A DNA stretch of 61,181 nucleotides. Origin: Methanomicrobiales archaeon. Lineage in GTDB: Archaea > Halobacteriota > Methanomicrobia > Methanomicrobiales > JACTUA01. The stretch's first letter is position 1. Every line of letters starts with the position of its first letter. The stretch spans positions 1 to 61,181 of the forward strand of contig JASEFH010000017.1 of the NCBI GenBank assembly GCA_030019205.1. Reading direction: 5' to 3'. Positions 10,888 through 58,016 of the stretch are shown piece after piece. Made by a program: the position numbers and the translations under genes. The notes beneath the pieces are model-generated. The model was not told the DNA's origin. It was given only the letters and a program-made list of their open reading frames with translations, and searched no databases.

Positions 10888-12633
10888 ATGCTCGCGCGCC
10901 CGCACTCCGATACGGCCTGGATCGTCCTGATCGTGCTCACATCGCTGGCAACGGTCGGGATCACCGTTGTCAGCCTCTCCCGGGGGGTCTACGACGTCTT
11001 CCCCTACCTCTACCTGATCCCCATCGTCATGGTCACCTTCGCCTTCCCGCACCGCGGCGTCCTCTGCTCGATCCTCCTGGGCGGGGTGTACATGGCGCTC
11101 GTCTACGCCTTCGGGCTCTTCAACCTGGCGCTGCTCACCATCAGCACGGCCTGGTTCTACGTCTTTGTCTCCGTGGGCGTGGTGATGTCCTCTCTCTCCG
11201 AGGGCATGAAGCGCGAGGAGAGGCGGTTCCGCGGGATCTTCGAGAACTCGCAGGCCGGGATCTTCACGATCGATCTCCCCTCCCGGACCATTGCGGAGGC
11301 GAACCGCCAATGCTCCGCTCTCCTGAACTACGAACCCGGCGAACTGGCGGGGAAGGATGTGGCCGTCATCTGGCCGGAGGTGGAGAACGGCCCGTTCCTC
11401 ACCCGGGTCACCAGCCGGTACACCGTGATCGACTCCGAGGTGTGCCTGAAGAACCGGAAGGGGGAGATTCGCTGGGCCCTGATGTCCCTCGCGCCCACCG
11501 CGGATCGCCAGCTCGTCTGCTCCTTCGTGGACATCACGGAGCGGAAGCGGATCGAGCAGGCGCTCCTGGAGTCGGAGATCAAGTACCGCAGCATCGTAGA
11601 ACGCTCGCTTGCAGGCGTCTACCTGATCCAGGACGGCCTCTTCCGCTACGTCAATCCCCGGTTCGCGGAGATCTGCGGTTACCGTCCCGAGGAGATGATC
11701 GACTGTATCGGGCTGCGGGATCTGGTGGTCCCCGAGGACTGGCCGATGGTGGAGGCGACCCTCGAGGGGCGGATTGCGGGCGAGCTCGAGGCCGTCCGCT
11801 ACGAGTGCCGCTGCCGCACCCGGGAGCAGGAGATCATCCTCCTGGAGGTTCACGGCTCCCGGATCTCCTACGAGGGGCGGACCGCCGTCGTGGGCACCGC
11901 GCTGGACATCACGGACCGGCGGCAGGCTTCCGATGCCCTCCGCCGGGCGAACGAGAAGCTGAACCTGCTCGGGTCCGTCACCCGCCACGATCTCCTGAAC
12001 CAGCTGACCGCCGTGCAGGGCTACATCGGGCTCGCCGAGGAGACTGCCCGGGAGGAGACGGTGCGGAAGTACCTCGCCAGCGCCGGGGGGGTGACCGGCA
12101 AGATGGAGACCCTCCTCCAGTTCACCCGGGACTACCAGAACATGGGTCTCCGCGAGCCCGAGTGGCAGATGGTGCGTGACGTGGCGCTCCAGGCCGTTCC
12201 GGCGCTGGACCAGGGCGGGATCCGGGTCGCCATCGCGACGGACGGGCTGGAGGTCTACGCGGACCCCCTCTTCGAGAAGGTCTTCTACAACCTGATGGAC
12301 AACACCCTCCGCCACGGCAAGCGGGCGACCGAGGTGCGGATCTACCACCAGATCTCCGCGGACGGGCTCTTCCTGATCTACGAGGACAACGGGGAGGGCA
12401 TCCTGGACATCGAGAAGGAGCTGATCTTCCGGCGGGGCTACGGCAGGAACACCGGGTTCGGGCTCTTCCTGATCCGCGAGATCCTGGCCCTCACCGGTAT
12501 GACCATCCGCGAGAACGGCGATCACGGGAAGGGAGCCCGGTTCGAGATCTTCGTACCCCGGGGTAACTACCGGTTCGCTCCTGCGGCCCGGCAGAGCGAA
12601 GGTGAGATTGCACCGCTGGAGAGGAAGGCATGA
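10888..12633 (+). CDS. membrane-anchored PAS sensor histidine kinase
   Basis: N-terminal multi-TM region, PAS domains ([12 protein letters not shown]), an H-box (RHDLLNQLTAVQGYIGLAEE) and a HATPase_c (GFGLFLIREI). Its stop overlaps the next start (ATGA). Confidence 0.85.
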   Translation: MLARPHSDTAWIVLIVLTSLATVGITVVSLSRGVYDVFPYLYLIPIVMVTFAFPHRGVLCSILLGGVYMALVYAFGLFNLALLTISTAWFYVFVSVGVVMSSLSEGMKREERRFRGIFENSQAGIFTIDLPSRTIAEANRQCSALLNYEPGELAGKDVAVIWPEVENGPFLTRVTSRYTVIDSEVCLKNRKGEIRWALMSLAPTADRQLVCSFVDITERKRIEQALLESEIKYRSIVERSLAGVYLIQDGLFRYVNPRFAEICGYRPEEMIDCIGLRDLVVPEDWPMVEATLEGRIAGELEAVRYECRCRTREQEIILLEVHGSRISYEGRTAVVGTALDITDRRQASDALRRANEKLNLLGSVTRHDLLNQLTAVQGYIGLAEETAREETVRKYLASAGGVTGKMETLLQFTRDYQNMGLREPEWQMVRDVALQAVPALDQGGIRVAIATDGLEVYADPLFEKVFYNLMDNTLRHGKRATEVRIYHQISADGLFLIYEDNGEGILDIEKELIFRRGYGRNTGFGLFLIREILALTGMTIRENGDHGKGARFEIFVPRGNYRFAPAARQSEGEIAPLERKA

Positions 12634-14798
12634 TCTCGGTTCTCTGCGTCGACGAGGAGAGCGGCCTGCTCGAAGTCGCCCGCATCTACCTGGAGCGGGA
12701 GGGGGACATGCAGGTGGATACCGCGCCATCCGGCATCCATGCCCTCGAGATGCTGAAGACCCGCCGCTACGATGCGATCGTCTCGGACTACCACATGGCC
12801 GGCGTCGACGGGATCGATCTCCTCAAGACCCTCCGCGCCCGGGGGGACAAGACCCCGTTCATCCTCTTCACGGGGAGAGGGAGGGAGGAGGTGGTGATCG
12901 AGGCGCTGAACCACGGGGCGTCCTTCTATCTCCAGAAGGGCGGCAACCCGAAGTTGCAGTTCGCGGAGCTCCGCCACATGATCCTCCAGGCGGTGCAGAG
13001 GCGGCGGATGGAGGTCTCCCTGCAGGTCACCCAGTTCGCCGTCGACCACGCCTCCGACGAGCTCTTCTGGATGGATCGGGATGGGCGGTTCCTGGCGGTG
13101 AACCACGCTGCCTGCCGGGCGCTGGGATACGACCGCGGGGACCTCCTGGGGATGACGATTGCGGACATCGATCCGTCGTATTCCGCCGATGCCTGGTCGG
13201 CCCTCATCCGGGAGCTGGCGGAGAAGGGATCCCTCGTCTTCGAGGGGAGGCACCGCCGAAAGAACGGAACCGTCTACCCCGTGGAGATCACGGCCAACTA
13301 CCTCAACCTCGAGGGGAACGATTACCTGTTCGCGTTCGTCCGGGATATCACGGAGCGGAAGCGGGTCGAGGAGGTTGCACGGGCGTCGCGGCAGCAGCTG
13401 GCCGATATCATCGATTTCCTGCCCGATGCCACCTTCGTGATCGACCGGGACCGCCGGGTGATCGCCTGGAACAAGGCGATCGAACGGATGACCGGTGTCT
13501 CCAAGGCGGAGATCCTGGGGCAGGGGGATTACGCCTACGCGGTGCCGTTCTACGGGTCCAAACGCCCGATCCTGATCGACATGATCGGGCGGGGGGATGC
13601 GGAGGTCGCATCGCAGTACCAGTCCCTCCGGAGAGACGGGGAGACCCTCTTCGCCGAGACCTTCGTGCCCTCGATCTGCGGAGGGCGGGGAGCCTATGTC
13701 TAGGCGAAGGCGTCGCCCCTCTACGACCAGCGCGGCAACCTGGCGGGCGCCATCGAGGCCGTTCGGGACGTCACCGAGCAGAAGAAGGCGGAGGAGGCGC
13801 TCCGGGAGAGCGAGGAGCTCTTCCGCACCCTGGTGGACAGCATGGTGGACGCCACGCTGATCATCGACTGGTCGGGCACCGTGCTCTTCGCCAACCGTGC
13901 GGCGATCCGGCTCGTGGGGCTGACGTCTTCCGAGGAGAGCGTGGGGCGCAGTGTGATGGAGTTTCTGGCGCCGGAGAGCCGCGGAGCGGTCGCCCGCGAT
14001 CTCGCCCTGGTGAGCCAGGGCCGGGGCGGATTCCTGGCGGAATACCGGATTCTGACGGCGGATGGCAGGATCCGCTGGGTGGAGTCCCTCGGGACCCGGA
14101 TCCGGTTCCGGGGATCCACCGCCGACCTCGTCTCTCTCCGGGACATCACCGAGCGGAAGGTGGCGGAGGAGGCGCTCCGCACCAGCGAGGAGAAGTTCCG
14201 GGCGGTCTTCCACAACGCCAACGATGCGATCGTCCTGAACGAGCTCACTCCGGACGGGATGCCGGGGAGGTTCATCGAGGTGAACGATCTCGCCTGCACG
14301 CGGCTCGGATACTCGAGGGAGGAGTTCCTGGAGATGACGCCGGCGGACATCGGTCTTCGGGAGTTCATCGACCGGCACCCTGAACTGCTCCAGGATCTCC
14401 GTTCGGGGAAGGCGATCACGTTCGAGATAACGCTCGTCTCGCGGGGAGGCGTGCAGATTCCGACGGAGATCAGCTCTCACGTCTTCAGCCTGGCCAACCG
14501 CCCGGTGATCCTTTCCATCGCGCGGGACATCACGGAGCAGAAGCTGAACGAGCACGTGGAGAAGAAGGCCTTCGAGCAGATCGAGAAGAACATCAGCCAG
14601 CTGGCGATCCTGGGCGATCACATCCGCAACCCCCTGGCGGTGATCGTCGCCCTGGCGGACATGGACGAGACGGAGCACGGGAAGCAGATCGTGGAGCAGT
14701 GCGCCATCATCGACGACCTGATCACCCGTCTCGACAAGGGCTGGATCGAGTCGGAGAACGTGCGGAACTTCATCCGCAAACACTACAGGTTGAGCTAA
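12630..14798 (+). pseudogene. REC + multi-PAS response-regulator protein interrupted by an in-frame TAG at 13701-13703
   Basis: CheY-like REC (ILFTGRGREEVVIEALNHGASFYLQKG) is followed by PAS domains. The reading frame continues unbroken across the TAG (…ICGGRGAYV*AKASPLYDQRGNLAGAIEAVRDVTEQKKAEEAL…), with two more PAS domains and a C-terminal output domain up to the TAA at 14798. Confidence 0.75.
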
Positions 14799-14804
14799 AA
14801 GCCG

Positions 14805-15488
14805 TCAGTCCGCCCCGTACGGCAGGGGGTCCCGGGCTCCGGCGTCGCGGAAGGCCTCCAGCCGCTCGACGCAGGCTCCGCACCGTCCGCAGGCGAGTTC
14901 CTCCCCGCGGTAGCAGGTCCAGGTGTCGGCGTAGTCCACGCCGAGTTCGAGGCCGATCCGCACGATGTCCCCCTTGGTGAGGTAGAGGTAGGGGGCCTCC
15001 AGGATCAGGTCGCTCCAGTCCGCCAGGTGAAAGGCGGTCTGCATGGCGGTCACGAAGACCGGGCGGCAGTCCGGGTAGATGGGGTGGTCGCCCGCGTGGG
15101 CTCCGTAGAAGAGGCGCCGTGCCCCGATCCCGATCGCGTAGGCTCCCGCCAGGGAGAGGAAGACCATGTTGCGGTTCGGGACGACCGTCTGCCGCATCAC
15201 GTCCTCGGCGTAGTGGCCCGACGGCACCGCCCGCTCCGCCCGCGTCAGGGCCGAGGGGGCGAGTTCGTTCAGGAGAGGGAGGTCGAGCACGCGGTGGGGC
15301 ACGTGCAGCCTCCGGCACGTCCTCTCCGCGCATGCGATCTCGCGGCGGTGCTTCTGGCCGTAGTCGAAGGTGACGGCGTGGACCTCGTAGCCCCGCCGCA
15401 CCAGATCGTAGAGGAGCGTGGTGCTGTCCAGACCCCCGGAGACGATCGCCACCGCGTTCCCGGAACCGTGCGGCGGGAGGCGCGGCAT
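14805..15488 (-). CDS. queC: 7-cyano-7-deazaguanine synthase
   Basis: VAIVSGGLDSTTLLYDL (PP-loop) and a C-terminal zinc motif (CGRCGACVERLEAF). Confidence 0.88.
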   Translation of the reverse strand: MPRLPPHGSGNAVAIVSGGLDSTTLLYDLVRRGYEVHAVTFDYGQKHRREIACAERTCRRLHVPHRVLDLPLLNELAPSALTRAERAVPSGHYAEDVMRQTVVPNRNMVFLSLAGAYAIGIGARRLFYGAHAGDHPIYPDCRPVFVTAMQTAFHLADWSDLILEAPYLYLTKGDIVRIGLELGVDYADTWTCYRGEELACGRCGACVERLEAFRDAGARDPLPYGAD

Positions 15489-15603
15489 GTCTTCACGCTG
15501 CATACTCCGGAAGGTGTTGGCGCGGACGGCACATTATACTTCACCCCCGGTCCCTGCCCGGGCGGCAGAAACGATTATCAGAAGGGCGGAGGGATGGGCA
15601 TCC

Positions 15604-16590
15604 ATGCGCTGCCGGCAGGTGATCGTTCTCCTGGCCGTCCTTGCCGTCCTCGTGTCGCCCGCCCCGGCTCACGTGCCCCTGGAGGCGGGGGACAACGGGA
15701 GCCTGGCGTCTGCGACACGGATCAGCGATCCGACCCGATCCTACGCGATCTACGCTCGACTGCACGAGGGCAGCGAGGCGCAGTACTACGCCCTCGCGAT
15801 GGAGGGCGGCGAGGAGCTCCGCCTCTCGCTGATGGTGCCGCGTGCCGGGGTCGATGCTCCCGATCTCGTGGTCATGGGCCCCGGCATCGAGTCCTCCGGA
15901 AGCGTGCCCTCCTCCGTGGAGGTTCCGCCCGGCTACGGGGCGGTCGTCGTGCGGGGAGTTTCCCCGGAGCAGGCGGAGTACGAACCCTTCACCCCCTCCG
16001 CCATCTACGAGGCGGCCGCCTTCTCGCGGGAGATCGAAGTTCCCGGCACCTACTACGCAGTCGTTCTCAACCCCGGCGGGAGCGGGGAGTACAGCCTTGC
16101 CGTGGGATACCGCGAGGAGTTCACGCCCCTCGAGTGGCTGTCGATCCCGTTCGACCAGATCCGCATTCACCTCTGGGAGGGCCAGCCCCTCTGGCTCATC
16201 CTCTCGCCCCTGATCCTGGTCCTCCTGGGGGGCATCGGGTTCGCCCTGGTGCGGCGGCGGGGAGGTCTCACCCCCTTCTCCCTCCTGGCGGGGCTGGCCG
16301 GGCTGCTCTACATCGGGACGGGCGGTATGACGCTTCTCCAGATGGGGATTGCCCTCTCCCGCACCGGCTTCGCGGGTTCAGCCCTGCTCACTCTCGTCTT
16401 TGCGGCAGTTCCCATCCTGCTGGGTGCTGCCGTCCTCCGCCTCGCCCGGAAGGAGCGGCCCCGTTCCTGCGCCCGGGAGCGGGTGTATCTGGCGGTCGCC
16501 GGGCTCCTGGGACTCCTCTCGTGGGCCGGGCTCGTTATCGGGCCTATCCTGGCCCTTATCGCCGGCGGCCTTCCCCGGCGGTTCTCCTGA
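15604..16590 (+). CDS. secreted/membrane protein of unknown function (signal peptide plus C-terminal multi-TM)
   Basis: Begins MRCRQVIVLLAVLAVLVSPAPAH (signal peptide). The rest is a soluble domain followed by three to four hydrophobic helices. No recognisable family. Confidence 0.5.
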   Translation: MRCRQVIVLLAVLAVLVSPAPAHVPLEAGDNGSLASATRISDPTRSYAIYARLHEGSEAQYYALAMEGGEELRLSLMVPRAGVDAPDLVVMGPGIESSGSVPSSVEVPPGYGAVVVRGVSPEQAEYEPFTPSAIYEAAAFSREIEVPGTYYAVVLNPGGSGEYSLAVGYREEFTPLEWLSIPFDQIRIHLWEGQPLWLILSPLILVLLGGIGFALVRRRGGLTPFSLLAGLAGLLYIGTGGMTLLQMGIALSRTGFAGSALLTLVFAAVPILLGAAVLRLARKERPRSCARERVYLAVAGLLGLLSWAGLVIGPILALIAGGLPRRFS

Positions 16591-16604
16591 CGGCGGATCG
16601 GGGA

Positions 16605-17372
16605 TCACCGCCGCTCGGGAAACGCCACATGAGGCCGCTTCCCGATGAACGAGCGGTCGATGTTCGCGGCCATGCGCAGCGCCGTGAGAATGGGGATGCC
16701 GATCGCCAGGTAGTCGGGCGGGATCGCCCAGTTGGTGGTGGGATCCTGCGGACCCAGGAAGACGGTCTCCTTCGGCGCCTTCTCCGCCATGCCGGCGGGG
16801 TAGGTGACGAGGGTGGCGCACGACGGGCCCCAGGGGACGATCACGGGGGAGAAGAGGTCCTCGCGGTCGAAGTGCGCCAGCGCCGCCAGGTTGCGGATCG
16901 TCTGGGCGTCCCCGAAGCAGCAGAGGGAGCGGATGCCGGGGTGCCGTTCTCCGAGCGCCTCGCAGTGCTGGATCACGGTGTACTTCCCCGGCGGCGTGAT
17001 CGTTCCCACTGCCCGGAAGTTCCTGTCGACCAGTTCGGGGCTCTCCTTGAGGTATTCCGCCGCCCCGCCGCGGATGTCCGCCCTCCCCGTGGAGACGAAG
17101 TAGCGGATGTATTCCGGAGCCTCGCCGTAGCCCATGTGGGTGATCCCGCCGGGACAGCACCCCTCCCGCTCCTCGCCGCCCAGGTAGACGGCGGGGATAT
17201 CGGCGGCGGTCGCCATCCGGTACATCGCCGCCGCGATGCAGCGGTGCACGCGGGAGAGGTGCACGGCCCCTTCGGGCACGTTCCCGGAGCCGTAGATGCA
17301 GAGGGGTTTTGCGGTGAGGCGGAACGCCGACGCCAGGCGCCGCCCCACCTCCTGAATGGTCGTTCTGCTCAT
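16605..17372 (-). CDS. DUF169-family protein
   Basis: Cys-rich conserved core (GSGNVPEGAVHLSRVHRCIAAAMY…CCPGGITHMGYGE) typical of DUF169. Start taken at MSRTTIQE. Confidence 0.6.
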   Translation of the reverse strand: MSRTTIQEVGRRLASAFRLTAKPLCIYGSGNVPEGAVHLSRVHRCIAAAMYRMATAADIPAVYLGGEEREGCCPGGITHMGYGEAPEYIRYFVSTGRADIRGGAAEYLKESPELVDRNFRAVGTITPPGKYTVIQHCEALGERHPGIRSLCCFGDAQTIRNLAALAHFDREDLFSPVIVPWGPSCATLVTYPAGMAEKAPKETVFLGPQDPTTNWAIPPDYLAIGIPILTALRMAANIDRSFIGKRPHVAFPERR

Positions 17373-17689
17373 GCCGGATAACCCTGGACCGCGATGGGGA
17401 AAAATGCTTGCGGATATGCGGGGCGGGGATGAACGTACCTCTCCCCGCCCGTGCACGGTCTCTGTACGACGCGTCTCTGCCGGTGCGGGCACGGTTCCCG
17501 CGGGGCAGTGGCGGAGGGGGTCCGGGCCGCCCTCCGGTGGAGCGGGGGAGGTACAGCCTCTTCCAGCACGTCCGGGCCCGTCGGCAACGGCGATTGCGCC
17601 ATCGTGCGCACCGCCGCACCGGGATCGGCGGGCCGCACGGGATCCAGATATGCGTTTCGGTTATGGAATAGGTGCGGAATACGCACATC

Positions 17690-17824
17690 GGAAAAAAAAT
17701 GTATATTTTTCGTTCTTTATTCCATCAATTAATATTAATGCATTTTTATTAATTTTTGGTAATATTTATAACTCCCCGGGCGAAACACCTGTGCAACGCA
17801 CTACGATACCGGGGAGAGACGAAC
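17690..17824. promoter_or_regulatory. AT-rich promoter region upstream of the GT4 gene
   Basis: ggaaaaaaaatgtatatttttcgttctttattccatcaattaatattaatgcatttttattaatttttggtaatatttata contains multiple TATA-like boxes. Confidence 0.45.
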
Positions 17825-19093
17825 ATGGCGTTCCTGGAAGGCATCACCTGCATCTGCGACAACGGAAAGAGGCTCGAAGACCACCGCCCCATCGTGGGGG
17901 ATGCGGTGATGGCGGAGATCTACCGCAAGGCGGAATCCCTCCGCGGCAGGAGCATCATCCACGTCAACTCCACCTACCAGAGCGGCGGGGTGGCGGAGAT
18001 GATCCTCTCCCTCGTTCCCCTCCTGAACGATGCCGGGATCCGCACCGAGTGGAAGATCCTGACCGGCAGCGGGGACTTCTTCACCGTCACCAAGAGCTTC
18101 CACAACGGGCTGCAGGGCGAGGCGATCCCGCTCACGGATGCGGATAAAAGGCTCTACCTCCGCACGAACGAGGAGTTCTCCCGCCTTCTTCCGATCGACT
18201 GCGACTGCGTGGTGGTCCACGATCCCCAGCCCCTGCCCCTGATCCAGTTCTACGAGAAGAGGCAGCCCTGGATCTGGCGCTGCCATGTGGATCTCTCCCA
18301 TCCCCAGATGCACCTCTGGGAATTTCTGCAGGAGTTTGTCATGAAGTACGACCGGATGGTGGTCTCCCACGAGCAGTACCGCCGCGACAACCTGCCGCTC
18401 CCGCAGCGGATCTGCCATCCGGCCATCGATCCTCTCTCCGACAAGAACCGCGACCTGACCGACGAGGAGGTGGCGGCGATCCTCCGGGAGTTCGATGTGC
18501 CGACGGACAAACCCCTGATCACCCAGATCTCGCGGTTCGACAAGTGGAAGGATCCCGAAGGCGTGGTCGAGGTCTTCTGCCGCGTGCGGGAAGAGGTGGA
18601 CTGCCGCCTGGTGCTCTGCGGCAGCATGGCGCCCGACGACCCGGAAGGATGGACGATCTACCGCGGCGTCGAGGAGAAGGCCCGGGACCTGCTGGAGAGC
18701 GGGGACGTCCTCCTGATCACCGTCGAGAACAACCTGCTCGTGAACGCCCTCCAGCGGGCGTCCGCCGTGATCCTCCAGAAGTCCCTGCGGGAGGGGTTCG
18801 GGCTCACGGTCACCGAGGCGCTCTGGAAGGGCAGGGCGGTCGTCAGCTCCCGCGTGGGCGGCATCCGCCTCCAGATCCAGGACGGCGTGAGCGGGTTCCT
18901 GCTGGAGCCGACGGATACGGAGGGGTTTGCGGCGAGGGTCGTGCAGATCCTCCGGGATCCGGCGCTCGCGGAGCGGCTCGGGCGGAACGGGAAGGAGTAC
19001 GTGCGGGAGCACTTCCTCATCACCCGCAAGCTCCTGGACTACCTGGACATGCTGAACGAGGAGCTCGGGCGGACGCAGGAAGCCTGCACCTGA
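17825..19093 (+). CDS. GT4 glycosyltransferase, trehalose synthase (TreT)-like
   Basis: IIHVNSTYQSGGVAEMILSLVP resembles the TreT N-terminal motif and the body is GT-B fold. Start at MAFLEG. Confidence 0.7.
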   Translation: MAFLEGITCICDNGKRLEDHRPIVGDAVMAEIYRKAESLRGRSIIHVNSTYQSGGVAEMILSLVPLLNDAGIRTEWKILTGSGDFFTVTKSFHNGLQGEAIPLTDADKRLYLRTNEEFSRLLPIDCDCVVVHDPQPLPLIQFYEKRQPWIWRCHVDLSHPQMHLWEFLQEFVMKYDRMVVSHEQYRRDNLPLPQRICHPAIDPLSDKNRDLTDEEVAAILREFDVPTDKPLITQISRFDKWKDPEGVVEVFCRVREEVDCRLVLCGSMAPDDPEGWTIYRGVEEKARDLLESGDVLLITVENNLLVNALQRASAVILQKSLREGFGLTVTEALWKGRAVVSSRVGGIRLQIQDGVSGFLLEPTDTEGFAARVVQILRDPALAERLGRNGKEYVREHFLITRKLLDYLDMLNEELGRTQEACT

Positions 19094-23422: not shown

Positions 23423-24629
23423 CTAGGCGCTTTCGATCGCTTCCAGCGCGCCCTCCAGGATGGCGAGCCCCTCCTCCACCTCGCGGCGGGTGATGTTCAG
23501 GGCGGGGGAGAGCCGCACGATGCGGTCCTGGATCAGGTTGACGATCAGCCCGCGGTGCAGGCATTCCTGCAGGAGCCGCTCGGCCGCCCCGGGATCGGCG
23601 AGTTCCATCGCGGCGAGCAGCCCCCGCCCCCGGACGCCCCGGATCCTGTCGGGATCCTCAGCATGCCAGCGGCGCATGCGATCGAGGATGACCGATCCCA
23701 TCGCCTCCACGTTCCGGGGGATATCCTTCTCCAGGAGTTCGTTCAGGACCGCATGGGCGACGGCGCAGCCCAGCGGGTTGCCGCAGTAGGTGCCTCCGTG
23801 GTCGCCCCTCCCGAGCCGGGCGGCCACCCCCTCGGTGAGGGCAAAGGCCGCGAAGGGGAACCCGCCGGCGATCCCCTTGCCCATGGTCAGGAAGTCCGGC
23901 TCCACGTCGTGCCCGCTGATGGCAAAGAGGGGGCCCGTGCGGCAGAACCCCGTCTGGATCTCGTCCACGATCAGCAGGCTCCCGTTCTCGTGGCAGAGCA
24001 CCGACATCTCCTCCAGGCAGCCTTCCGAGGGGACGTTCACCCCGCCCTCCCCCTGGATGGGCTCGACGATCACCGCCGCGACGTCCCCGTCGAGCGCCTC
24101 CGCCAGAGCGGCCGGATCGTCGTAGGGGATGAAGCGGAAGTTCGGCATCCGCGGCTGGTACCTGTCGCGGTGCTTCGGCTGGCCGGTCGCGGACGCGGTG
24201 CCGATCGTCCGTCCGTGGAAGCCTCTGCAGGGTGGAGATGACGTCGGTCCTGGCAGTGACCTTGCGGGCCAGCTTGATGGCGGCGTCGTTCGCCTCCGCT
24301 CCGCTGTTGCAGAAGAAGACGCGGGTGAGGGGCGGCGGCAGCAGAGGCACCAGGCGGGAGAGGAGCCGGGCCCGCACTGGGGAGTAGGTGAGCCCGGAGT
24401 TGGGGTTCTGGAGGATCTTCTTCCCCTGCTCCACGAGAGCGGCATAGACCGGCGGCGCGGCGTGCCCGAGGCAGGTGACGCCCCAGCCGGCGGTGAAGTC
24501 CAGATACCGTCTCCCGTTCTCGTCCCAGACGTAGACCCCTTCCCCCCGCTCGATCGCGATCGGGAGCCTGGCGGCGAAGGGCGGCATGTGGCGATCCTCG
24601 ATCGCCATGGTGGATGCGGCATCGTCCAT
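23423..24629 (-). pseudogene. class-III (acetylornithine/ornithine-type) aminotransferase with a 1-nt frameshift near 24205
   Basis: The N-terminal half (…DFTAGWGVTCLGH…FFCNSGAEANDAAIKLARKVTARTDVISTLQ) is in one frame. The PLP-lysine half (GFHGRTIGTASATGQP…DEIQTGFCRTG…LTMGKGIAGGFP…) is in another. On the minus strand the join reads ctgcag-a-ggcttccac where ctgcagggcttccac is expected. Confidence 0.75.
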
Positions 24630-26344: not shown

Positions 26345-26779
26345 CTATTTTCTTGTATCGAAGAACTCCAGGAACCAGCGGACGAACTCCATCAGCTGGC
26401 GCATGTCGGCGGGTTTGGTGATATAGTAGGTCGTGGGATACTGGGTTGCCTGGCTGTAATCCATCTCGTCTTTGGATCCGGTCAGCACCACCACCGGTAT
26501 CTTCTTCAGGCGGGCGCTCGTCTTGATCTCATGGAGCACCTCCCGCCCGTCCTTTCGGGGAAGGTTGAGGTCGAGGAGGATCACATCCGGGGCGGAGACG
26601 GAGGCGTATTTCCCCTTCCTCTCCAGGAACTCCATCGCCTCCACCCCGTCCCCGACGGTGCTGAGGTGGTAGTGCATCCTCGACTCGCGGAACGCCTCCT
26701 CGATGGATCGCACGTCACCGGGGTTGTCTTCGACGAGAAGGATCCTCTTGGGCATCTCGAGTTGTCCTTCGTTCTTCAT
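26345..26779 (-). CDS. stand-alone CheY-like response regulator (REC domain)
   Basis: KRILLVEDNPGDVR…ILLDLNLPRKDG…PVVVLTGS…K. TAG stop. Confidence 0.85.
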   Translation of the reverse strand: MKNEGQLEMPKRILLVEDNPGDVRSIEEAFRESRMHYHLSTVGDGVEAMEFLERKGKYASVSAPDVILLDLNLPRKDGREVLHEIKTSARLKKIPVVVLTGSKDEMDYSQATQYPTTYYITKPADMRQLMEFVRWFLEFFDTRK

Positions 26780-38400: not shown

Positions 38401-39198
38401 GCCGGTGATCGGATCGTCGATCCGCAGGGTCTCCCGCTGCTGGATCACCCGGTCCAGGATCGCGTCGACCTCGGGTTCGGGTTTGAGACTCGCATTCTCG
38501 CGGAGCTGCTTGCGGCTGTCGAAGATCCGCACCTGCTGGACGTAGGGATTGAGCGACGTTATCTGGCGGATGCTTTCGCTCTCCCCCATGCGGGAGAGCG
38601 GCGTGTTCAGGATCTCCCCCTGCAGCCCCAGCTCGAGGACGTAGCGGTGGTCCGGCGTCGGCATGTAGGCATACTTCCGCAGGATGCCGGTGGCCGGCTC
38701 GGTGACGATGCGGTCGGGGAAGAACCCCTCCGACTGGCGGATGGCGGTCAGGTAGTCGTAGAAGTACGGCACCTTCCGGAAGTCCAGGCCCCGGTCGGGT
38801 GCGAAGGTGGTGTACGCGATAACCCCGGTTTCGTCGATGACGTAGAGATCCATGTCGCCCCCGATCCGCTCCTTGACCCCTTCCAGGTCCATCCGGGCGG
38901 GATCCCGCCCGGCGCGTTCGTACTCCTCCAGGAATAGGCCGAACCCGTTCAGCATCCTCGCGTTGAGCGTGCCGTCGAAGAGCTTCTGCCCGTCATCGAT
39001 GATGCGCAGGTTCTGATCGATGCCGTTCTCGACCTGCTGCTCGAGCAGTTCCGTGCGGGCTGCCAGGTTCCGTTCGGCGAAGGTGTAGTCCACGCAGGTG
39101 GTACCCGCCGTGGCGACGGCGATGAGCAGGAAGAGGGAGATCAGCAGGTAGTGGGAGAAGGGGCGTTTTCCCGTGTCCATCGGAATTCTCGACGGCAT
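35470..39198 (-). CDS. giant sensor histidine kinase with two tandem extracytoplasmic sensor modules, HAMP, two PAS, HisKA and HATPase_c
   Basis: Start at MPSRIPMDTGKRPFSHYLLISLFLLIAVA. It contains two homologous TM-sensor-TM-HAMP units (…FLEEYERAGRDPARMDLEGVKERIGGDMDLYVIDETG… and …FLAEYERAGRDVSRMDLERVKTELGGEMDLYIINDSA…), then PAS, PAS, an H-box (FSYSVSHDLRSPLRAI) and an ATPase. The upstream 216 codons of the ORF are low-complexity and rejected. Confidence 0.85.
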   Translation of the reverse strand: MPSRIPMDTGKRPFSHYLLISLFLLIAVATAGTTCVDYTFAERNLAARTELLEQQVENGIDQNLRIIDDGQKLFDGTLNARMLNGFGLFLEEYERAGRDPARMDLEGVKERIGGDMDLYVIDETGVIAYTTFAPDRGLDFRKVPYFYDYLTAIRQSEGFFPDRIVTEPATGILRKYAYMPTPDHRYVLELGLQGEILNTPLSRMGESESIRQITSLNPYVQQVRIFDSRKQLRENASLKPEPEVDAILDRVIQQRETLRIDDPITGRKVTYLFVDLRDERYGSDVSRIVEITYDTANLRSTLDTGILYHLLAATAAFVLAALGAVLLTRRIAVPIQQMASDVDAISRGEPNRAAPREHGRARGYRPLPGERRLAHTIFLVMVLIVGFVVVAVTAADYVKTERDFQETAALARQGTEGYLGQTVRLVDTGYLLYDETLNARMREGFMQFLAEYERAGRDVSRMDLERVKTELGGEMDLYIINDSAVVERTTFAPDLGLDFRQWNHTHEFLMDILQKDGFYPDRVVRETATGMFRKFAYMPTPDHRYILELGMAEDLFKEQHHRLDYEAGITAIAARNPYLETVRLFDTTRHMMGNFSYVPTPEEAAALDRVIQERRTVEIPGSGKTVRYLLVDLASPDYASDTSWILELTYNTNLVDTELQRLLLSHVLVALGAIALSGLLALALSQGLTRPIQRIVQDAEAIARGDLDRRVPPSSASELAVLERSINTMVERLKASMQALQSSEERYRAVVETQSEFIARFRPDGTHIFANDAYCRYFGKTCSEIVGRRFVPQIPEADRALVEAHFRSLTPHNPSANIEHRLILPGGEIRWQQWNDRAFFDADGRVTEYQSVGRDITERKRIEEELRESEKKYRDLVSLLPQGVFEANLQGVITFANQYAFDTFGYTPEDLGRGISLDAVVLPEQRERVHDSMLKVGQGVRLVDMEYTAVRKDGTVFPVMVYATPVYAGSAVAGIRGVIVDITRLKKVEEDIRRLNEELERRVAERTAELESAIGELESFSYSVSHDLRSPLRAIDGYSGILLSEYRSSLPPEARVYLEKVRSNTQQMANLIDALLNLSRISRSSLTKEAVDITAVVKTVWENLRSECAGRQVEFTIGPLPPSRADAFLISQVYHNLLSNALKFTRPRAMARIEVGSFAKDGETVYFVRDNGVGFDPRYAEKLFGVFQRLHSEKEFEGTGVGLAIVKRILDRHGGRIWVESGIDRGTTFFFTCGSDDDGSSS
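36950..39093 (-). repeat. internal tandem duplication (two units of about 1.08 kb) encoding the two sensor-HAMP modules of the giant kinase
   Basis: Protein units at aa 36-395 and 396-about 750 align collinearly at roughly 50-60% identity. Coordinates are approximate. Confidence 0.6.
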
Positions 39199-39526
39199 GC
39201 TGGCACCCGCACTCCGGTCGGGGGAAGATCCGGATCTCCGGCGATCAGGGGATTGGGTGTTGAGCATGATAATGGCTCCGCAGCCGGGATGGTCATCCGT
39301 GTGCGCCGGAGCCTCCGGGCCCATGAAGGCTCCCGCCGGCGTCCTCCCCGCTGCTTTCGCAAAAAACCCCTCCGTGCGATCCCGAGCGGCGCAGGCCGCC
39401 CCGTCGGGGGCGTCCCGCGGGCGACAGGGGATGGCGGCGATCCGGGCGGGGGAGCCCCGGTCCTCGCACTCCCGCAGAAGGGCAACCCTAAAACCGTGGG
39501 ACCTGCTATCTGATACGGGGAGGCTC

Positions 39527-40543
39527 ATGCTGGAGATGGTGCTCGTCGCTCTGACGTTTGCCTTCGCCTTCACCAATGGCTTCCAGGATGCCAGCACGAT
39601 CGCCGCGACCTTCATCGCGTCCCGCTCGGCGACCCCCCGCCGGGGGATCCTCTTCATCGCCGGGCTGCAGTTCGCGGGGGCGCTGCTGGGCGGGACCGCC
39701 GTCGCCTTCACGCTCTCCTCCCTGCTCGCCTTCGACGCCGGTCCGGCGGCGGTCCCGGTGCTGCTGACCGCCCTGCTGGGGGCGATCGCCTGGAACCTCC
39801 TGACCTGGAGGTATGCCCTTCCCTCCTCCTCCACCCACGCCCTCATCGGGGGTCTGGTCGGAGCCGGCGTCGCCTACGGCGGTCCTGCCGGCATCTTCTG
39901 GGGCGTCGCGGAGTTCCTCGCCCCCCCGCACGAACTCGCCGGTCTCCTGAAGATCCTGGTCTTTCTCGCCGTCTCCCTGGCAGTCGGTCTCCTGGGGGGG
40001 TTTGCCCTGCACCGCACGGCCGCGCTCCTGCTCCGCAACGCCCGGCGGGGAGTCGTGCGGGAGATCGCGCGCAGCAACTGGATCGCCGCGGGGTTCATGG
40101 CGTTCTTCAACGGCGCCAACGACGGCGGGAAGCTGCTGGGAATCGTGCTCCTGGGGCTGGGCGCCTCCGGCACCTGGGCGGGCACGGGGCAGCCGCTCTG
40201 GGCCCGGCTCGGCATCGCCCTGCTCATCACCCTGGGAACGGTCGGGGGCGGGTGGCGCATCATGGCCACCCTGGGGCGGCGCATCTTCAAGATCGAGCCC
40301 CTCCACTCCTTCTCCTCCCAGTTCTCTTCCGGAGCCTCGATCGCCCTCTCCACCCTCGCCGGCGCCCCCATCTCCTCAACCCACGTCATCACCAGCTCGG
40401 TCCTCGGGGTGGGGGCGGCGGAGAACCCGCGGCGGGTCCGGTGGTCGGTGGGGCGCGACATCGTCGCCTCGATGCTGCTCACCCTCCCGGCGACCGCGCT
40501 CCTCACAGCCTTTATGTACTGGCTGATCGCACCCTTCCTCTAG
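39527..40543 (+). CDS. PiT-family inorganic phosphate transporter (second copy)
   Basis: FTNGFQDASTIAATFIASR and FFNGANDGGKLLG half-repeats. Confidence 0.85.
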   Translation: MLEMVLVALTFAFAFTNGFQDASTIAATFIASRSATPRRGILFIAGLQFAGALLGGTAVAFTLSSLLAFDAGPAAVPVLLTALLGAIAWNLLTWRYALPSSSTHALIGGLVGAGVAYGGPAGIFWGVAEFLAPPHELAGLLKILVFLAVSLAVGLLGGFALHRTAALLLRNARRGVVREIARSNWIAAGFMAFFNGANDGGKLLGIVLLGLGASGTWAGTGQPLWARLGIALLITLGTVGGGWRIMATLGRRIFKIEPLHSFSSQFSSGASIALSTLAGAPISSTHVITSSVLGVGAAENPRRVRWSVGRDIVASMLLTLPATALLTAFMYWLIAPFL

Positions 40544-47140: not shown

Positions 47141-48022
47141 ATGACGAACGAACTCGAGGTCCTGATGCAGGTGCTGTTCTGGGGGGTCTACTCGGGCTGC
47201 ATCTACATCCTCCTGGCGACGGGCCTCAACCTGATCTTCGGGGTGATGAAGACCGTCAACTTCGCCCACGGGGAGTTCCTCATGCTCGGCGCCTACGTCA
47301 CCGCGACCATCTTCGCCCTGACCGGCTTCGATCCCTACAGCATCATCCTCCTCTCGATGGGGGTGCTGGCGCTCGTCGGGATCGCCACGGAGCGGCTCTG
47401 CTTCCGCTGCGTCCTCGGGAAGGGGAAGCTGAACGAGATCTTCCTCTCCCTCGGGCTGATCTACGTGTTCCAGAACGTGGCGGCCCTGATCTGGACGGAC
47501 GAGTGGCAGGGCATCCACAGCCCCTACGAGGCGATCACCATCCCGATAGGGGGTCTGCGGGTGCCGCTCGACTACTTCATCATCGCCGGGGTGACGATCG
47601 CCGTCCTTGCCGCCCTCTACTTCTTCCTGCGGCGGACTCCCACCGGGCGGGCGATGCGGGCGACGAGCCAGAACCGGAGAGGGGCGATGCTCGTCGGGAT
47701 CGACGTGGAGAAGATGGACATGATCAGCTTCGGGATCGGCACCGCCCTGGCGGCCGCGGCGGGAACCCTCTGGGTGGTCAGCGGGCAGGTCTTCAACCCC
47801 TACATGGGCTCGATACCCGCCGTGAAGGCGTTCGCGATCATCATCCTGGGCGGTCTCGGCAGCATCCCCGGGGCGATCATCGGCGGGCTGCTCTACGGGA
47901 TTGCGGAGAACGGGGCCGCCTTCTACCTGGGAGGGCCGTGGAAGGACGCCATCTCCTTCATCGTCCTGATCGTCGTATTGATCGTCCGCCCCACGGGGCT
48001 GTTCGGGGAGTCGGGTGAGTAG
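47141..48022 (+). CDS. livH: branched-chain amino-acid ABC transporter permease
   Basis: LivH-type permease. Confidence 0.88.
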   Translation: MTNELEVLMQVLFWGVYSGCIYILLATGLNLIFGVMKTVNFAHGEFLMLGAYVTATIFALTGFDPYSIILLSMGVLALVGIATERLCFRCVLGKGKLNEIFLSLGLIYVFQNVAALIWTDEWQGIHSPYEAITIPIGGLRVPLDYFIIAGVTIAVLAALYFFLRRTPTGRAMRATSQNRRGAMLVGIDVEKMDMISFGIGTALAAAAGTLWVVSGQVFNPYMGSIPAVKAFAIIILGGLGSIPGAIIGGLLYGIAENGAAFYLGGPWKDAISFIVLIVVLIVRPTGLFGESGE

Positions 48023-49018
48023 ATGCTGGAGAGGCTGCGGGATCCGCGCTGGATGCGGTATGCGCCCCATATCGCCGTGGCCACGGCGATCGCCCTGCCG
48101 TTCCTCTCGGGGATGAACCTCTACCTGATGAATGTCTGGATCCTGATGCTGATCTTCATCATCTTCGCCTCGTCCTGGAACCTCCTCGCCTACTCGGGGC
48201 AGGCGTCGCTCGGGCACGCCGCTTTCTTCGGCATCGGGGGCTACGTCTCGACGCTCGTCGCCCTCAACCTGGGGGTGAGCCCCTATCTCTCCATTCTCGT
48301 CGGCGGCGCGGTCTCGGCGATCGTCGGGGTGCTCCTCGGTCTCACCTGCGTGCGGCTGAAGGAGTGGTTCCTCGCCATGGTCACGTTCGGGTTCGCCATC
48401 ATCGTCCAGACGCTGGTCGTCAGCGTGCTCGCCCCCGTCAGCGGCGGCTGGGACGGGCTCTCGTCGCCCCGTCTGCTGGCGAGCAGCGTCCCCGGCTCCG
48501 CCCTCTTCGAGTACTACGCGATCCTCCTGGTCACCATCGGGTCGATCCTGCTGATCCACTTCATCTTCCGGTCCCGCCTGGGGCTCGCCTTTGCTGCGAT
48601 TCGCGAGAACGAGCTCGAGGCGCGGGTCTCCGGCGTGGATCCGGTGCGCTACAAACTGCTGGCGTTCGCCATCAGCGCCTTCCTGGCGGGCATCGCCGGC
48701 GCTCTCGAGATCCACCACTTCGGCTACGTCACCCCGGAGATCTACGGTGTGGATCTCTCGTTCTGGCCGGTGATCTACACCATCTTCGGGGGGCTCGGCA
48801 CCATTGCCGGACCCATCCTGGGAACGGTGGTCATCACGGTCCTCTGGGACGCCCTGAAGGACCTGGGGCTGACCTACGAGCGCTACATCGTCATCGGCGC
48901 CGTCCTGGTCTTCTCCGTGATATTCCTGCCCAAAGGGCTGGTCTCCCTGCCCGAGGCGATCTCCGCGTGGCGGCGGCGGAGACGGGGGCGGGTCCGCGGC
49001 GATCAGATGCCCAGGTAA
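48023..49018 (+). CDS. livM: branched-chain amino-acid ABC transporter permease
   Basis: LivM-type permease, adjacent to livH (TAG/ATG junction). Confidence 0.88.
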   Translation: MLERLRDPRWMRYAPHIAVATAIALPFLSGMNLYLMNVWILMLIFIIFASSWNLLAYSGQASLGHAAFFGIGGYVSTLVALNLGVSPYLSILVGGAVSAIVGVLLGLTCVRLKEWFLAMVTFGFAIIVQTLVVSVLAPVSGGWDGLSSPRLLASSVPGSALFEYYAILLVTIGSILLIHFIFRSRLGLAFAAIRENELEARVSGVDPVRYKLLAFAISAFLAGIAGALEIHHFGYVTPEIYGVDLSFWPVIYTIFGGLGTIAGPILGTVVITVLWDALKDLGLTYERYIVIGAVLVFSVIFLPKGLVSLPEAISAWRRRRRGRVRGDQMPR

Positions 49019-49708: not shown

Positions 49709-50446
49709 CTACATGGCGTCCAGTTCGCCGAGGTAGGTCTCGATCACGCGCCGGTTGTTGATCACGTCGTGCGGCCGCCCTTCGGCGATCTTCTCCCCGT
49801 GGTCCAGGACCACGATCCTGTCGGAGACGCCCATGATCACCTGCATGACGTGCTCGATGATCAGGATCGAGGTCCCTGCGTCCCGGATCTCCCGGATGAG
49901 CTGGACCGCGTCCGCGCTCTCTCTGGGCGTCAGCCCGGTGGTCAGCTCGTCCAGGAGGAGGAGCCGGGGCTTCGAGGCCAGGGCGCGGGCGAGCTGCACC
50001 CTCTTCAGCTCCACGACGTTGAGGTGGCGGATCAGCGTCTCGTGCTTCTCGGGCGGCAGTCCGATCCGCTCGAGCAGTTCCTCCGCCTCCCGCCGCGCCT
50101 CCCCCATGCCGGGCGCCCTCGAGTTCCCGAAGAGGGAGCCGAGCATCACGCACTGCTTCGCGGAGAGCTCGGGAAAGAGGTGGACGAGCTGGAACGTCTT
50201 GGTGATGCCCTTCCGGCAGATCTGCTCGGGTTTCCAGCCGGTGAGGTCTTCGCCCTGGAAGATGACGGTCCCCGAGGTCGGCTGCGCGATCCCGGAGATG
50301 ATGTTGAGCAGCGTGGTCTTGCCCGCCCCGTTGGGGCCGACCAGCCCCAGGATCTCGTTCTCGTGCACCTCGAGACTGACGCCGTTCAGGGCGACGAGGC
50401 CGTTGATCTTCTTGGTGATCCCTTCCGCCCGCAGCAAGATCGACAC
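49709..50446 (-). CDS. livG: branched-chain amino-acid ABC transporter ATP-binding protein
   Basis: GPNGAGKTT, LLLDE and a LivG-type C-terminus. GTG start. Confidence 0.9.
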   Translation of the reverse strand: MSILLRAEGITKKINGLVALNGVSLEVHENEILGLVGPNGAGKTTLLNIISGIAQPTSGTVIFQGEDLTGWKPEQICRKGITKTFQLVHLFPELSAKQCVMLGSLFGNSRAPGMGEARREAEELLERIGLPPEKHETLIRHLNVVELKRVQLARALASKPRLLLLDELTTGLTPRESADAVQLIREIRDAGTSILIIEHVMQVIMGVSDRIVVLDHGEKIAEGRPHDVINNRRVIETYLGELDAM

Positions 50447-50826: not shown

Positions 50827-51273
50827 CTATGCCGGCGGACTCCCGCCGGGGTTCCGGGCCATCGGGCAGACGTTGCAGCCCTCCATCTCCCCGAAGCAGA
50901 AGAGGAACCGTTCGCGGATGCTCCGCGGTAGGCGGGCCTCGGGGATGGGGTAGAACCCGAAGGTCTTATAGAACGGGATGAGGGGCAGGGTCGAGTGGAT
51001 GTAGATCGTCTCGGCGCCGCAGGTGTCGATGAGGAGTTCGACCGCCTCGCGGGCGTAGCCCTTCCCCCGGTACGCGTCCAGCGTGAAGACGCAGTCCATC
51101 TCCAGGCCGTCGGGGTGGCGGGTGCAGCGGGCGGTGGCGGCGAGGGTGCCGTCTAGGAAGACGCCGAAGATCCTCTCGCGGGCGGGATCGGCCTTCTGGT
51201 TGCGGTACTGCTCCCAGATCTTCTCGGCGAGGGGGAACTCTTCCGGCGTCAGGATGCGGGTCTCGGGTTTCAT
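50827..51273 (-). CDS. GNAT-family N-acetyltransferase
   Basis: …IYIHSTLPLIPFYKTFGF… with an acetyl-CoA pocket (RGKGYAREAVE). Start at MKPETRIL. Confidence 0.78.
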   Translation of the reverse strand: MKPETRILTPEEFPLAEKIWEQYRNQKADPARERIFGVFLDGTLAATARCTRHPDGLEMDCVFTLDAYRGKGYAREAVELLIDTCGAETIYIHSTLPLIPFYKTFGFYPIPEARLPRSIRERFLFCFGEMEGCNVCPMARNPGGSPPA

Positions 51274-51492
51274 CGGTCTCTCCGGTGACGATGGGCGGAT
51301 ACGCTCTCCTCCCTGATATATGCTTGCGGTCTGCGGGGGCAGGGGGCGTCCGCGCCCCGCGGTGCATGCGGAGATTCGGGGGATCCCCCGGGATTCGGTG
51401 CGGACCCCGAGCCTCCCCAGGGGTTCTTCCGCAAAGCCCTTCAGGCAGCAGTTAGTATTATGATCCCGGAGCGCCAAAGGTACTGGTCAGGT

Positions 51493-51563
51493 GCGATAGT
51501 AGTCTAGTGGCAGGACAGGGGCTTCCCAAGCCTCTAGCCCGGGTTCGAATCCCGGCTATCGCA
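51493..51563 (+). tRNA. tRNA-Gly (anticodon CCC)
   Basis: Hand-folded cloverleaf. Acceptor GCGATAG/CTATCGC; D stem GTCT/GGAC; anticodon stem GGGGC/GCCTC with loop TTCCCAA; T arm CCGGG-TTCGAAT-CCCGG; discriminator A. No CCA is encoded. Confidence 0.85.
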
Positions 51564-51899
51564 TCCCTCTTCTCGGTCACCGTTTATGCACACCCGTTCC
51601 GGGTCACCCCTGACCCGCGACTGCCGGGAGATATTTTCTCCACGAGGTCCGGCCGGTGACTGCCGAGCCCGATAGGCTTTGCGCCCGGGAGAACGCGGCC
51701 AAAATCCCGACGGACGCTGCGCATTTCCGCGAATGCATCGCCGAACGTCGGGCGGACCGGCACGATCGTCTCCTGCCCGGTCACCGGGCGGGGCTTCACC
51801 GCTCTCTTCCCGGAGATGCTGGAAGCGGATCTCTGCGGGGTATCGCACGCGCATAGAGTCCTGAGGTCGGCCGTTCACGCAGAACCCCCCGGCGGGGGG

Positions 51900-54693: not shown

Positions 54694-55494
54694 ATGCAGG
54701 GCATCGAAAAGACGGTTCACATCATCCCCCTCGGATACGAGATCGATCGGGCCGTAAAACCGTTCGAGAAGACGAAGGCCGACCGTGTATACCTATTGAC
54801 GACGTTGCATCCATCGAACCCGGACGATGTCCGGAGTAAGGATCAGCGGCACTACACGGAGACTGTGAAAAGGATTCTGGAAGATATGGAGATTCAGGTA
54901 CAGTGCGTCCATGTGGATCTCTTCGATCTGCTCGACGTGATGAAAGAGATCTCGAAGATCATCCTTCGGGAGAAGGCCAACAACAATCGAATTTTTGTGA
55001 ACATGTCTGCTAGCGGAAGGCTCACTTCTGTCGCTTCCACCCTTGTTGGAATGGCCCACGATGTCACGGTGTATTATGTCCCTGCCGAGGATTACCCTGT
55101 CGACGAGGTCCTCCGCAGAGATCACGGCTTGAGAATCTGCTCTCCAGATGATGATATCCAGAAGCTGGTGAACTTCCAGTTCGTCATGCCGGATCCCATC
55201 GGCAGACAGATCCTCCTGCACCTGTGCAGCGAGAGAAGGCGGTTGAAGATGAGAGATATTCTGAGTGTCCTGAAGAAAGAGAAGGTTGAGGGGTTCGAGG
55301 AGCTGTTCGATGAGATCCGGGATGGCAACAAAAGAGCGGAGCAGAGTCGCCAGCTCATGAAGCTGGACAGGACCATCCTGGCGAAGCTCGAAAAGAACGG
55401 GTGGATCGCGCGGGAAAAGGTCGGACGGACCGTCTTCATATCCATAACGGAATCCGGGAAATACGCCGCATGTATCAGCGGTTATTTGGACTAG
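54694..55494 (+). CDS. HFX_2341-like archaeal transcriptional regulator (Rossmann-like N-domain plus C-terminal wHTH)
   Basis: VHIIPLGYEIDRAVKPFEK…RVYLLT is a Rossmann-like sensor domain. The C-terminus reads ILSVLKKEKVEGFEELFDEI…TILAKLEKNGWIAREKVGRTVFISITESG (wHTH). Confidence 0.5.
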   Translation: MQGIEKTVHIIPLGYEIDRAVKPFEKTKADRVYLLTTLHPSNPDDVRSKDQRHYTETVKRILEDMEIQVQCVHVDLFDLLDVMKEISKIILREKANNNRIFVNMSASGRLTSVASTLVGMAHDVTVYYVPAEDYPVDEVLRRDHGLRICSPDDDIQKLVNFQFVMPDPIGRQILLHLCSERRRLKMRDILSVLKKEKVEGFEELFDEIRDGNKRAEQSRQLMKLDRTILAKLEKNGWIAREKVGRTVFISITESGKYAACISGYLD

Positions 55495-56399: not shown

Positions 56400-58016
56400 A
56401 TGGCACGGGGGAGCAGGACCGCAAGGAACCAGAGCAAAAGATCCGGAAACGGGGCCAATCTCGGGTTTGAGGCAACGCTCTGGGCCGCTGCTGACAAGAT
56501 GCGCAACAACATGGATGCGGCCGAGTACAAGCACGTGGTCCTCGGCCTCATCTTCCTGAAGTACATCTCCGATGCGTTCGACGAGCGCCACACCCGGCTC
56601 GAGACGGAGCTGGGCGATCCGAAGAGCCTCTGGTACATCCGCGAGCCCCAGGCCCGCTACCGCGCCCTCGAGGATCCGGACGAGTACCGGGCGGAGAACG
56701 TCTTCTGGGTCCCGAAGGAGGCCCGCTGGTCCTACCTGCAGGCGAATGCGAAGCAGCCCACCATTGGAAAGATCCTTGACGAGGCGATGGTCGCGATCGA
56801 GCGGGACAATGTATCGCTCAAGGGTGTGCTCCCGAAGGACTACGCCCGCCCCGCCTTGGACAAACAGCGCCTCGGCGAGCTGATCGATCTCATCGGGACC
56901 ATCGGTCTCGGAGACAAGGAGAACCGTTCAAAGGACATCCTCGGGAGAGTGTACGAGTACTTCCTCTCCCAGTTCGCGAGTGCCGAGGGGAAGAAGGGCG
57001 GCCAGTTCTACACGCCCCGCTGCGTGGTGCGGGTGCTGGTGGAGATGCTCGCGCCGTACAGGGGGCGGGTCTTCGACCCCTGCTGCGGCTCGGGGGGCAT
57101 GTTCGTCCAGAGCGAGAAGTTCGTCGAGGCCCACGGCGGACGGATCGGGGATATCAGCATCTACGGGCAGGAGTCCAACCCGACGACCTGGCGGCTGGCA
57201 AAGATGAACCTGGCCATCCGGGGCATCGACGCCGATCTCGGGAAGGAGCACGCGGACAGCTTCCACCGCGATCTCCACCCGGACCTAAAGGCCGACTACA
57301 TCCTCGCCAACCCGCCGTTCAACATGAGCGACTGGGGTGGTGAGCGGCTCCGGGAAGATGCCCGCTGGAAGTACGGAGTCCCGCCGGTGGGCAACGCCAA
57401 CTTCGCCTGGGTGCAGCACTTTATCCACCACCTGGCCCCGACCGGTCTTGCCGGGTTCGTGCTCGCGAACGGTTCGATGTCCTCGAACCAGTCCGGCGAG
57501 GGGGAGATCCGCCAGAACATCATCGAGGCGGACCTGGTGGACTGCATGGTGGCGATGCCAGGGCAGCTCTTCTACTCGACGCAGATCCCCGTCTGTCTCT
57601 GGTTCCTGGCCCGCGACAAGAAGAACCACCGCTTCCGCGATCGACGGGGGAAGATCCTCTTCATCGATGCCCGCAAGCTGGGCCATATGATCGACCGGGT
57701 GCATCGGGACCTCTCCGAGGAGGATATCGCCCGCATCGCCGGGACCTACCATGCCTGGCGGGGCGATGCCGGGGCGGCGACGTACGAAGACGTGCCGGGT
57801 TTCTGCAAGAGCGCGACCATCGAGGAGGTGCGGCAGAACGGGTATGTGCTCACGCCGGGGAGGTATGTGGGTGCGGAAGTAGTGGAGGACGATGGCGAGC
57901 CGTTCGATGAGAAGATGCAGCGGCTCACTGCGAAATTGAAGGAGCAGTTCGCAGAGTCCGAGCGGCTGGAAGCGGTGATCCGGGAGAACCTGAAGGGGCT
58001 CGGGTTTGAGATTTAA
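56400..58016 (+). CDS. hsdM: type I restriction-modification system DNA methyltransferase subunit
   Basis: HsdM N-terminus ([34 protein letters not shown]), AdoMet motif ([12 protein letters not shown]) and catalytic NPPF ([12 protein letters not shown]). Confidence 0.9.

Follow-up and report, generated by a model that had tools for sequence, protein, structure and literature searches.

Architecture of the locus

Here, we describe two adjoining signalling genes on the forward strand of a 61,181-nucleotide stretch of DNA (the window, a contig of a Methanomicrobiales MAG, analysed over its whole length), the second of which is interrupted by an in-frame stop codon. The first (10888..12633, + strand) encodes a PAS histidine kinase of 581 aa, located by mapping the gene call of a sibling strain and matched by NCBIfam and Pfam PAS and HATPase_c models. 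The second gene, for a multi-PAS response regulator, starts with an ATG that runs into the TGA of the first (4-bp overlap, ATGA, 12630-12633), with GGAGAGGAAGG immediately before, and given this overlap the two genes probably form one operon, co-translated from one transcript. In the deposited sequence, the frame that opens at ATG 12630 meets a TAG at 13701-13703 and stays open past it to a TAA at 14796-14798, giving 722 codons and a terminal stop.

Read through the TAG, the regulator comprises a receiver domain (REC), four PAS domains (PAS1-PAS4) and, at its C-terminus, a short conserved domain. The Pfam model Response_reg matches residues 4-107 with 78.3 bits (cut-off 30.2), four stretches match Pfam PAS_9/PAS, and the NCBIfam PAS model TIGR00229 reaches 259.7 bits. 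Pfam HATPase_c is absent from the regulator, and HisKA, at 16.7 bits, stays below its cut-off of 26.9. The stop leaves an N-terminal fragment of 357 aa (12630..13703, + strand; GenBank MDI6876991.1) with REC, PAS1 and roughly the first 80% of PAS2. The remainder of the ancestral frame (13704..14798, + strand) encodes what is left of PAS2, then PAS3 and PAS4, and lastly the C-terminal domain, which is about 80 aa long and contains an LGDHIRNPL H-box.

PAS2, the interrupted domain, covers residues ~252-381 of the read-through protein (13383..13772, + strand), as delimited with Pfam PAS_4 and the AlphaFold model of an orthologue, P0001 (mean pLDDT 76). The model has strands at residues 334-346, 355-365 and 371-380; codon 358, the TAG, falls in the 355-365 strand, the second-last of PAS2. 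The continuity of frame, third-position GC bias and PAS-domain logic across the TAG, which an earlier note on this DNA had read from the letters, is borne out: GC3 is 0.82-0.98 and GC2 0.28-0.58 in all 150-nt blocks on either side of the codon, and a single Pfam PAS_4 match (residues 264-385) spans it. A six-frame scan for stops flanked on both sides by 60 open codons of coding-like composition returned four, three of them at gene boundaries and only that at 13701 within a gene, which argues that the position of this TAG inside coding sequence is not due to chance.

Origin of the in-frame TAG

A sibling MAG (GCA_030017635.1, contig L083) is 99.76% identical to the window over 22,172 aligned columns (window 2628-24797). 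Its regulator gene is intact (722 aa; P0122, MDI6720143.1, in the same 90% cluster as the window's product) and has G at 13702, making codon 358 TGG, Trp. A search of metagenome contigs for a pattern that leaves the codon's middle base open yielded FWPV01008749.1 (L084; GCA_900174595.1), about 99.5% identical to the window and likewise with TGG at codon 358. This contig shares the window's alleles at 13503, 13626, 13678, 13687 and 13744 and has G at 13702, so TAG and TGG are one base apart on the same haplotype.

More distant orthologues agree. P0001 (GCA_034679905.1; 90% identity, 100% coverage, 722 aa) and P0003 (partial; 74% identity) both have Trp, reading ...GAYIWAKASPLYD and ...GAFLWAKASPLYD, respectively, within the context ...GAY(I/V)WAKASPLYD, and of 105 homologous PAS domains (from retrieved homologues, aligning across this position) 92 have Trp. 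The read-through product matches one continuous orthologue in the same frame and at the same length (722 aa in both P0001 and P0122). Among the matches listed from a search of genome contigs with P0001 were PAS paralogues, the best at 37% identity, and no close relatives. The amber at codon 358 is thus not conserved, with TGG or Trp in the sibling, L084, P0001 and P0003, and these comparisons show that the ancestral codon is TGG (Trp). The same sense codon in the sibling, in the same-haplotype contig and in distant orthologues is one of those that the earlier note had listed as a single-nucleotide restoration of the frame.

We consider the very probable explanation (probability about 0.85) to be a nonsense mutation that arose very recently at strain level in a gene for a multi-PAS response regulator and truncates its 722-codon product. 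In one strain, a G>A transition at 13702 would have converted TGG, the codon of the conserved Trp358, into amber TAG, and translation would stop within strand H-beta of PAS2. The predicted 357-aa product comprises REC, PAS1 and an incomplete PAS2, from which most of H-beta and all of I-beta are missing, and has no PAS3, PAS4 or C-terminal domain; these last three parts would be made only with a putative ribosome restart at GTG 13833 or ATG 13842. We infer both loss of function and this fate of the two fragments. Between 13745 and 14798 the window and the sibling have zero differences; the gene is otherwise undecayed and near-identical strains keep TGG, which points to a very recent event. With the gene intact in a sister strain, the lesion appears to be an ordinary young disruption and not the mark of an unusual genetic code. 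A recent nonsense mutation had headed the options of the earlier note, and TGG in the close relatives supports it.

Authenticity of the A at 13702

The TAG is present in a second assembly. In the Logan assembly of SRR23186779, contig L001 (6567 bp) aligns to window 11982-18548 with a single mismatch, at 17362, and encodes the identical 357-aa truncated product. SRR23186779 may be the MAG's own library, in which case L001 would exclude an assembler artefact yet would not be a biological replicate. As an independent assembler gives the same TAG, an assembler artefact is unlikely, and the earlier suggestion of an assembly error is weakened accordingly, surviving as the very unlikely reading that the organism has TGG and that the A is an artefact of the MAG consensus. 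What gives this reading some footing is that all related sequences have TGG and that the same MAG differs from its sibling by a 1-bp indel in another conserved gene. Compared with L083, the window has one C more at 24222, which frameshifts a class-III aminotransferase gene (23423-24629, minus strand), intact in the sibling at 401 aa; this insertion reflects either a second genuine lesion or an imperfect MAG consensus. Short-read consensus seldom retains substitution errors, and 13702 lies outside any homopolymer. Against a consensus error, too, the k-mer-based Logan assembly of SRR23186779 independently shows the A, which L001 links to the window-specific G at 13678 and at 13687, within 25 nt.

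An exact look-up of a neighbouring 100-aa protein, made to test the 24222 frameshift in Logan data, gave no record. A look-up of the QueC neighbour gave one further sample, SRR31012009, whose contig (L087) ends at 14184, short of codon 358. A 328-aa ORF at 15604-16590 is conserved beside queC in all related contigs and is matched by no Pfam or NCBIfam model.

Strain variation and a second amber allele

All six differences between the window and L083 within the regulator gene lie in a 242-bp stretch (13503..13744, + strand) and consist of five nonsynonymous changes and the nonsense change. Special selection in this stretch, where six of six changes alter the protein, was considered and set aside as not significant, since the neighbouring genes also differ mostly by nonsynonymous changes (20 nonsynonymous and 11 synonymous in the 17 other genes compared). 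None of these 17 genes has a nonsense change.

Contig FWPV01008749.1, intact at codon 358, is disrupted elsewhere in the same gene. The codon for Trp189 (13194..13196, + strand), TGG in the window, is TAG in this contig (TGG>TAG at window 13195; contig positions 2206-2208), a second independent amber allele. The contig has also lost exactly the PAS3 module, in frame (375 bp, 13818..14192, + strand), and the deletion joins at a 9-nt repeat, AGCGAGGAG. Copies of this repeat, at 13809-13817 and 14184-14192, lie within conserved inter-PAS linkers, and the junction is near position 2821-2829 of the contig. Collapse of PAS3 during assembly is unlikely, as a shared junction repeat of just 9 nt is too short for k-mer collapse. 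The Logan contig L087 from SRR31012009 ends exactly at the junction of this deletion, window 14184.

Disrupted alleles are therefore present in two of the three populations seen (the window and FWPV01008749.1, with L083 intact), a hint, from so few populations, that strains can do without the regulator or tolerate losing it; this sensor gene seems to be either dispensable or repeatedly disrupted. A stronger form of the idea is that inactivation is recurrent and possibly selected: the sampled habitats would permit or favour strains without the regulator, and the amber at 13701 would be one of several independent knock-outs. We regard this as unlikely. It draws on the third population, with W189>TAG and a precise PAS3 deletion, on the freedom of the 17 other compared genes from nonsense changes, and on the fact that every between-strain change in the regulator alters the protein (mismatches of L084 at 14145-14183 were left out as alignment artefacts of the deletion junction). 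The sample is small, however, with three populations and two events; the nonsynonymous excess is not significant when set beside the 20 versus 11 elsewhere; and with seven Trp codons in the regulator, about 1.7% of possible transitions create a stop. The strain comparison gives a small glimpse of turnover in multi-PAS sensor genes within a species, by amber mutations, by exact loss of a PAS module through recombination between linker repeats and by clustered amino-acid changes in one PAS domain.

A separate cluster of differences lies in the histidine kinase gene. At window 11500-11850, there are 10 differences from L083 in 350 bp (five synonymous, five nonsynonymous), a divergence of about 3% against a background of 0.24%, and L083 and L084 have identical alleles there. 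This segment looks like an imported recombination tract in a PAS region.

TAG usage and recoding

TAG is a normal stop codon in the window. It closes five domain-complete genes, whose Pfam domains finish 4-41 residues before the stop: on the minus strand, a REC protein (26345-26779), a LivG-type ATPase (49709-50446) and a GNAT protein (50827-51477), and besides these a PHO4 transporter (39173-40543, TAG at 40541) and a LivH-type permease (47141-48022). In-frame extensions past the TAGs of the REC, PHO4 and GNAT genes are non-coding-like (GC3 0.55-0.88; GC2 0.63-0.92), and the LivG TAG is immediately followed by a second stop. The LivH TAG abuts a LivM-type ATG in the same frame (48020-48025), and a naive screen for TAGs with coding sequence on both sides flags this boundary too. 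The four TAG terminators on which pyrrolysine decoding had earlier been called unlikely (26345, 31629, 31939 and 40541) are all present, and two of them, at 26345 (REC) and 40541 (PHO4), close genes with complete domains.

Methanomicrobiales are not known to carry a pyl system. Neither ARAGORN nor Rfam detected a tRNA-Pyl in the 61-kb window, both returning tRNA-Gly alone. No stimulatory RNA structure was found at the TAG: a 120-nt RNA beginning 3 nt upstream of it folds with z = +1.36, and 187 of 200 shuffled sequences fold at least as well. By a crude GC3-based gene caller, genes in the window end in TGA (23), TAG (7, 13701 included) and TAA (3), so that TAG ends 6 of the 32 other called genes (about 19%), and the six-frame scan revealed no internal stop in any other gene of the window. 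Constitutive decoders of pyrrolysine (Pyl) are reported to have TAG frequencies of 1.6-5% (PMC4153887).

These observations bear on programmed recoding, in which UAG would be read as pyrrolysine, or by a suppressor or near-cognate tRNA, and the 722-aa protein would still be made. The intact downstream frame and the two independent TGG>TAG alleles of one gene in near-identical populations are in keeping with it, as is the ability of new in-frame ambers to persist in organisms that decode Pyl (PMC4153887). Weightiest on the other side is the lack of conservation of the TAG, which is TGG in the sibling and orthologues; the excess of TAG stops over that of constitutive decoders, the five domain-complete genes ending in TAG, an internal TAG unique to 13701 in 61 kb, and the want of a tRNA-Pyl in the window and of a stabilising structure after the codon all point the same way. 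We hold recoding to be extremely improbable. The pyrrolysine ambers of mtmB, mtbB and mttB in Methanosarcinales and Methanomassiliicoccales resemble the present codon as in-frame TAGs in methanogen genes, past which coding continues. Here, by contrast, the TAG is unconserved and a common terminator, the gene is no methylamine methyltransferase, and the window has no pylT.

A further proposition is that ribosomes of this lineage pass UAG at an appreciable rate, for example with near-cognate tRNA-Trp or a suppressor so far unrecognised, or else that knock-out of the regulator has been repeatedly selected in the sampled habitats; we judge it highly improbable. Were the lineage to read through UAG appreciably, amber alleles of non-essential sensors would be nearly neutral, and TGG>TAG changes at two of the seven Trp codons might persist for that reason. 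Under the preferred reading of a young nonsense mutation, the locus serves as a useful negative control for pyrrolysine and read-through screens of methanogen MAGs: even where coding continuity across it is perfect, an in-frame TAG can be no more than a nonsense allele a few mutations old.

The downstream fragment and its annotation

In GenBank, the part downstream of the stop is a separate CDS of 348 aa, MDI6876992.1. It starts at ATC 13752-13754, with the deposited M replacing the encoded Ile, and this start looks less like a supported one than like a product of maximising ORF length. The restart that the earlier note had placed at an internal Met at 13833 needs correction, as 13833 carries a GTG and no ATG occurs in frame until 13842. 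Three annotations thus place the downstream start at 13752, 13833 and 13842, and their disagreement suggests that a strong start signal is lacking.

Were the mutation real and the locus nonetheless working as a functional split, REC-PAS1 would act beside a restarted PAS3-PAS4-H-box protein. Members of the family with the order REC-PAS3-PAS4-C-terminal domain (about 483-490 aa) exist, which indicates that PAS1 and PAS2 are optional modules; candidate starts lie about 130 nt past the stop, with GGTGGA 4 nt before ATG 13842; and gene callers do call a second CDS there. The absence of an agreed start among the three positions tells against such a split, as does the presence of REC in all aligned family members except P0003, a fragment without its N-terminus. 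A restart at 13842 would moreover begin at residue 405 and clip the N-terminal helix of PAS3 (residues 382-403 in the model). On balance, a functional split is quite unlikely.

MDI6876991.1 and MDI6876992.1 are, under the nonsense-mutation reading, best seen as halves of one recently disrupted gene, for which a pseudogene flag would be preferable. The case resembles strain-specific nonsense pseudogenes and split genes (the 'internal stop' class of NCBI PGAP) in its one-base stop, in the match of both halves to one orthologue, in the frame that is kept and in the intact state of close relatives. There is no substantive difference from that class, except that here GenBank has two CDSs and no pseudogene flag. 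The phenomenon is already known in kind and matters little beyond annotation.

Family context and genomic surroundings

The regulator resembles multi-PAS regulators and sensors of Methanomicrobiales and Methanothrix (REC PF00072, PAS TIGR00229) in its N-terminal receiver, tandem PAS domains, RD(I/V)TE(R/Q)K-AEEAL linkers and adjoining PAS histidine kinase gene. It differs from them in its end of about 80 aa with LGDHIRNPL, a sub-threshold HisKA match and the absence of HATPase_c. In its own family, REC, PAS3 and PAS4 make up the constant core together with the C-terminal domain, whose LGDHIRNPL motif is invariant; PAS1 and PAS2 are optional, and the number of PAS modules varies within and between species. 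The C-terminal ~85 residues (14535-14798), which contain the LGDHIRNPL H-box, are common to REC-(PAS)n proteins of Methanomicrobiales. A comparison of this domain with PDB sequences gave no meaningful match (best E = 4.9), and its AlphaFold confidence is low (pLDDT ~41-65); a role in phosphotransfer, or as a DHp-only domain, is a guess.

Farther along the window, a tRNA-Gly(CCC) gene lies at 51492-51566. From about 52.5 kb, some 0.9 kb past the tRNA, GC content falls from about 0.66 to 0.40-0.54 and stays low to 61181, except at 56.5-58 kb, where an ORF (56400-58016) resembles a type I restriction-modification methylase. The segment 52500-61181 probably represents an integrated island, and coordinate arithmetic would place the end of the sibling MAG's contig near window position 55131, within this low-GC region.
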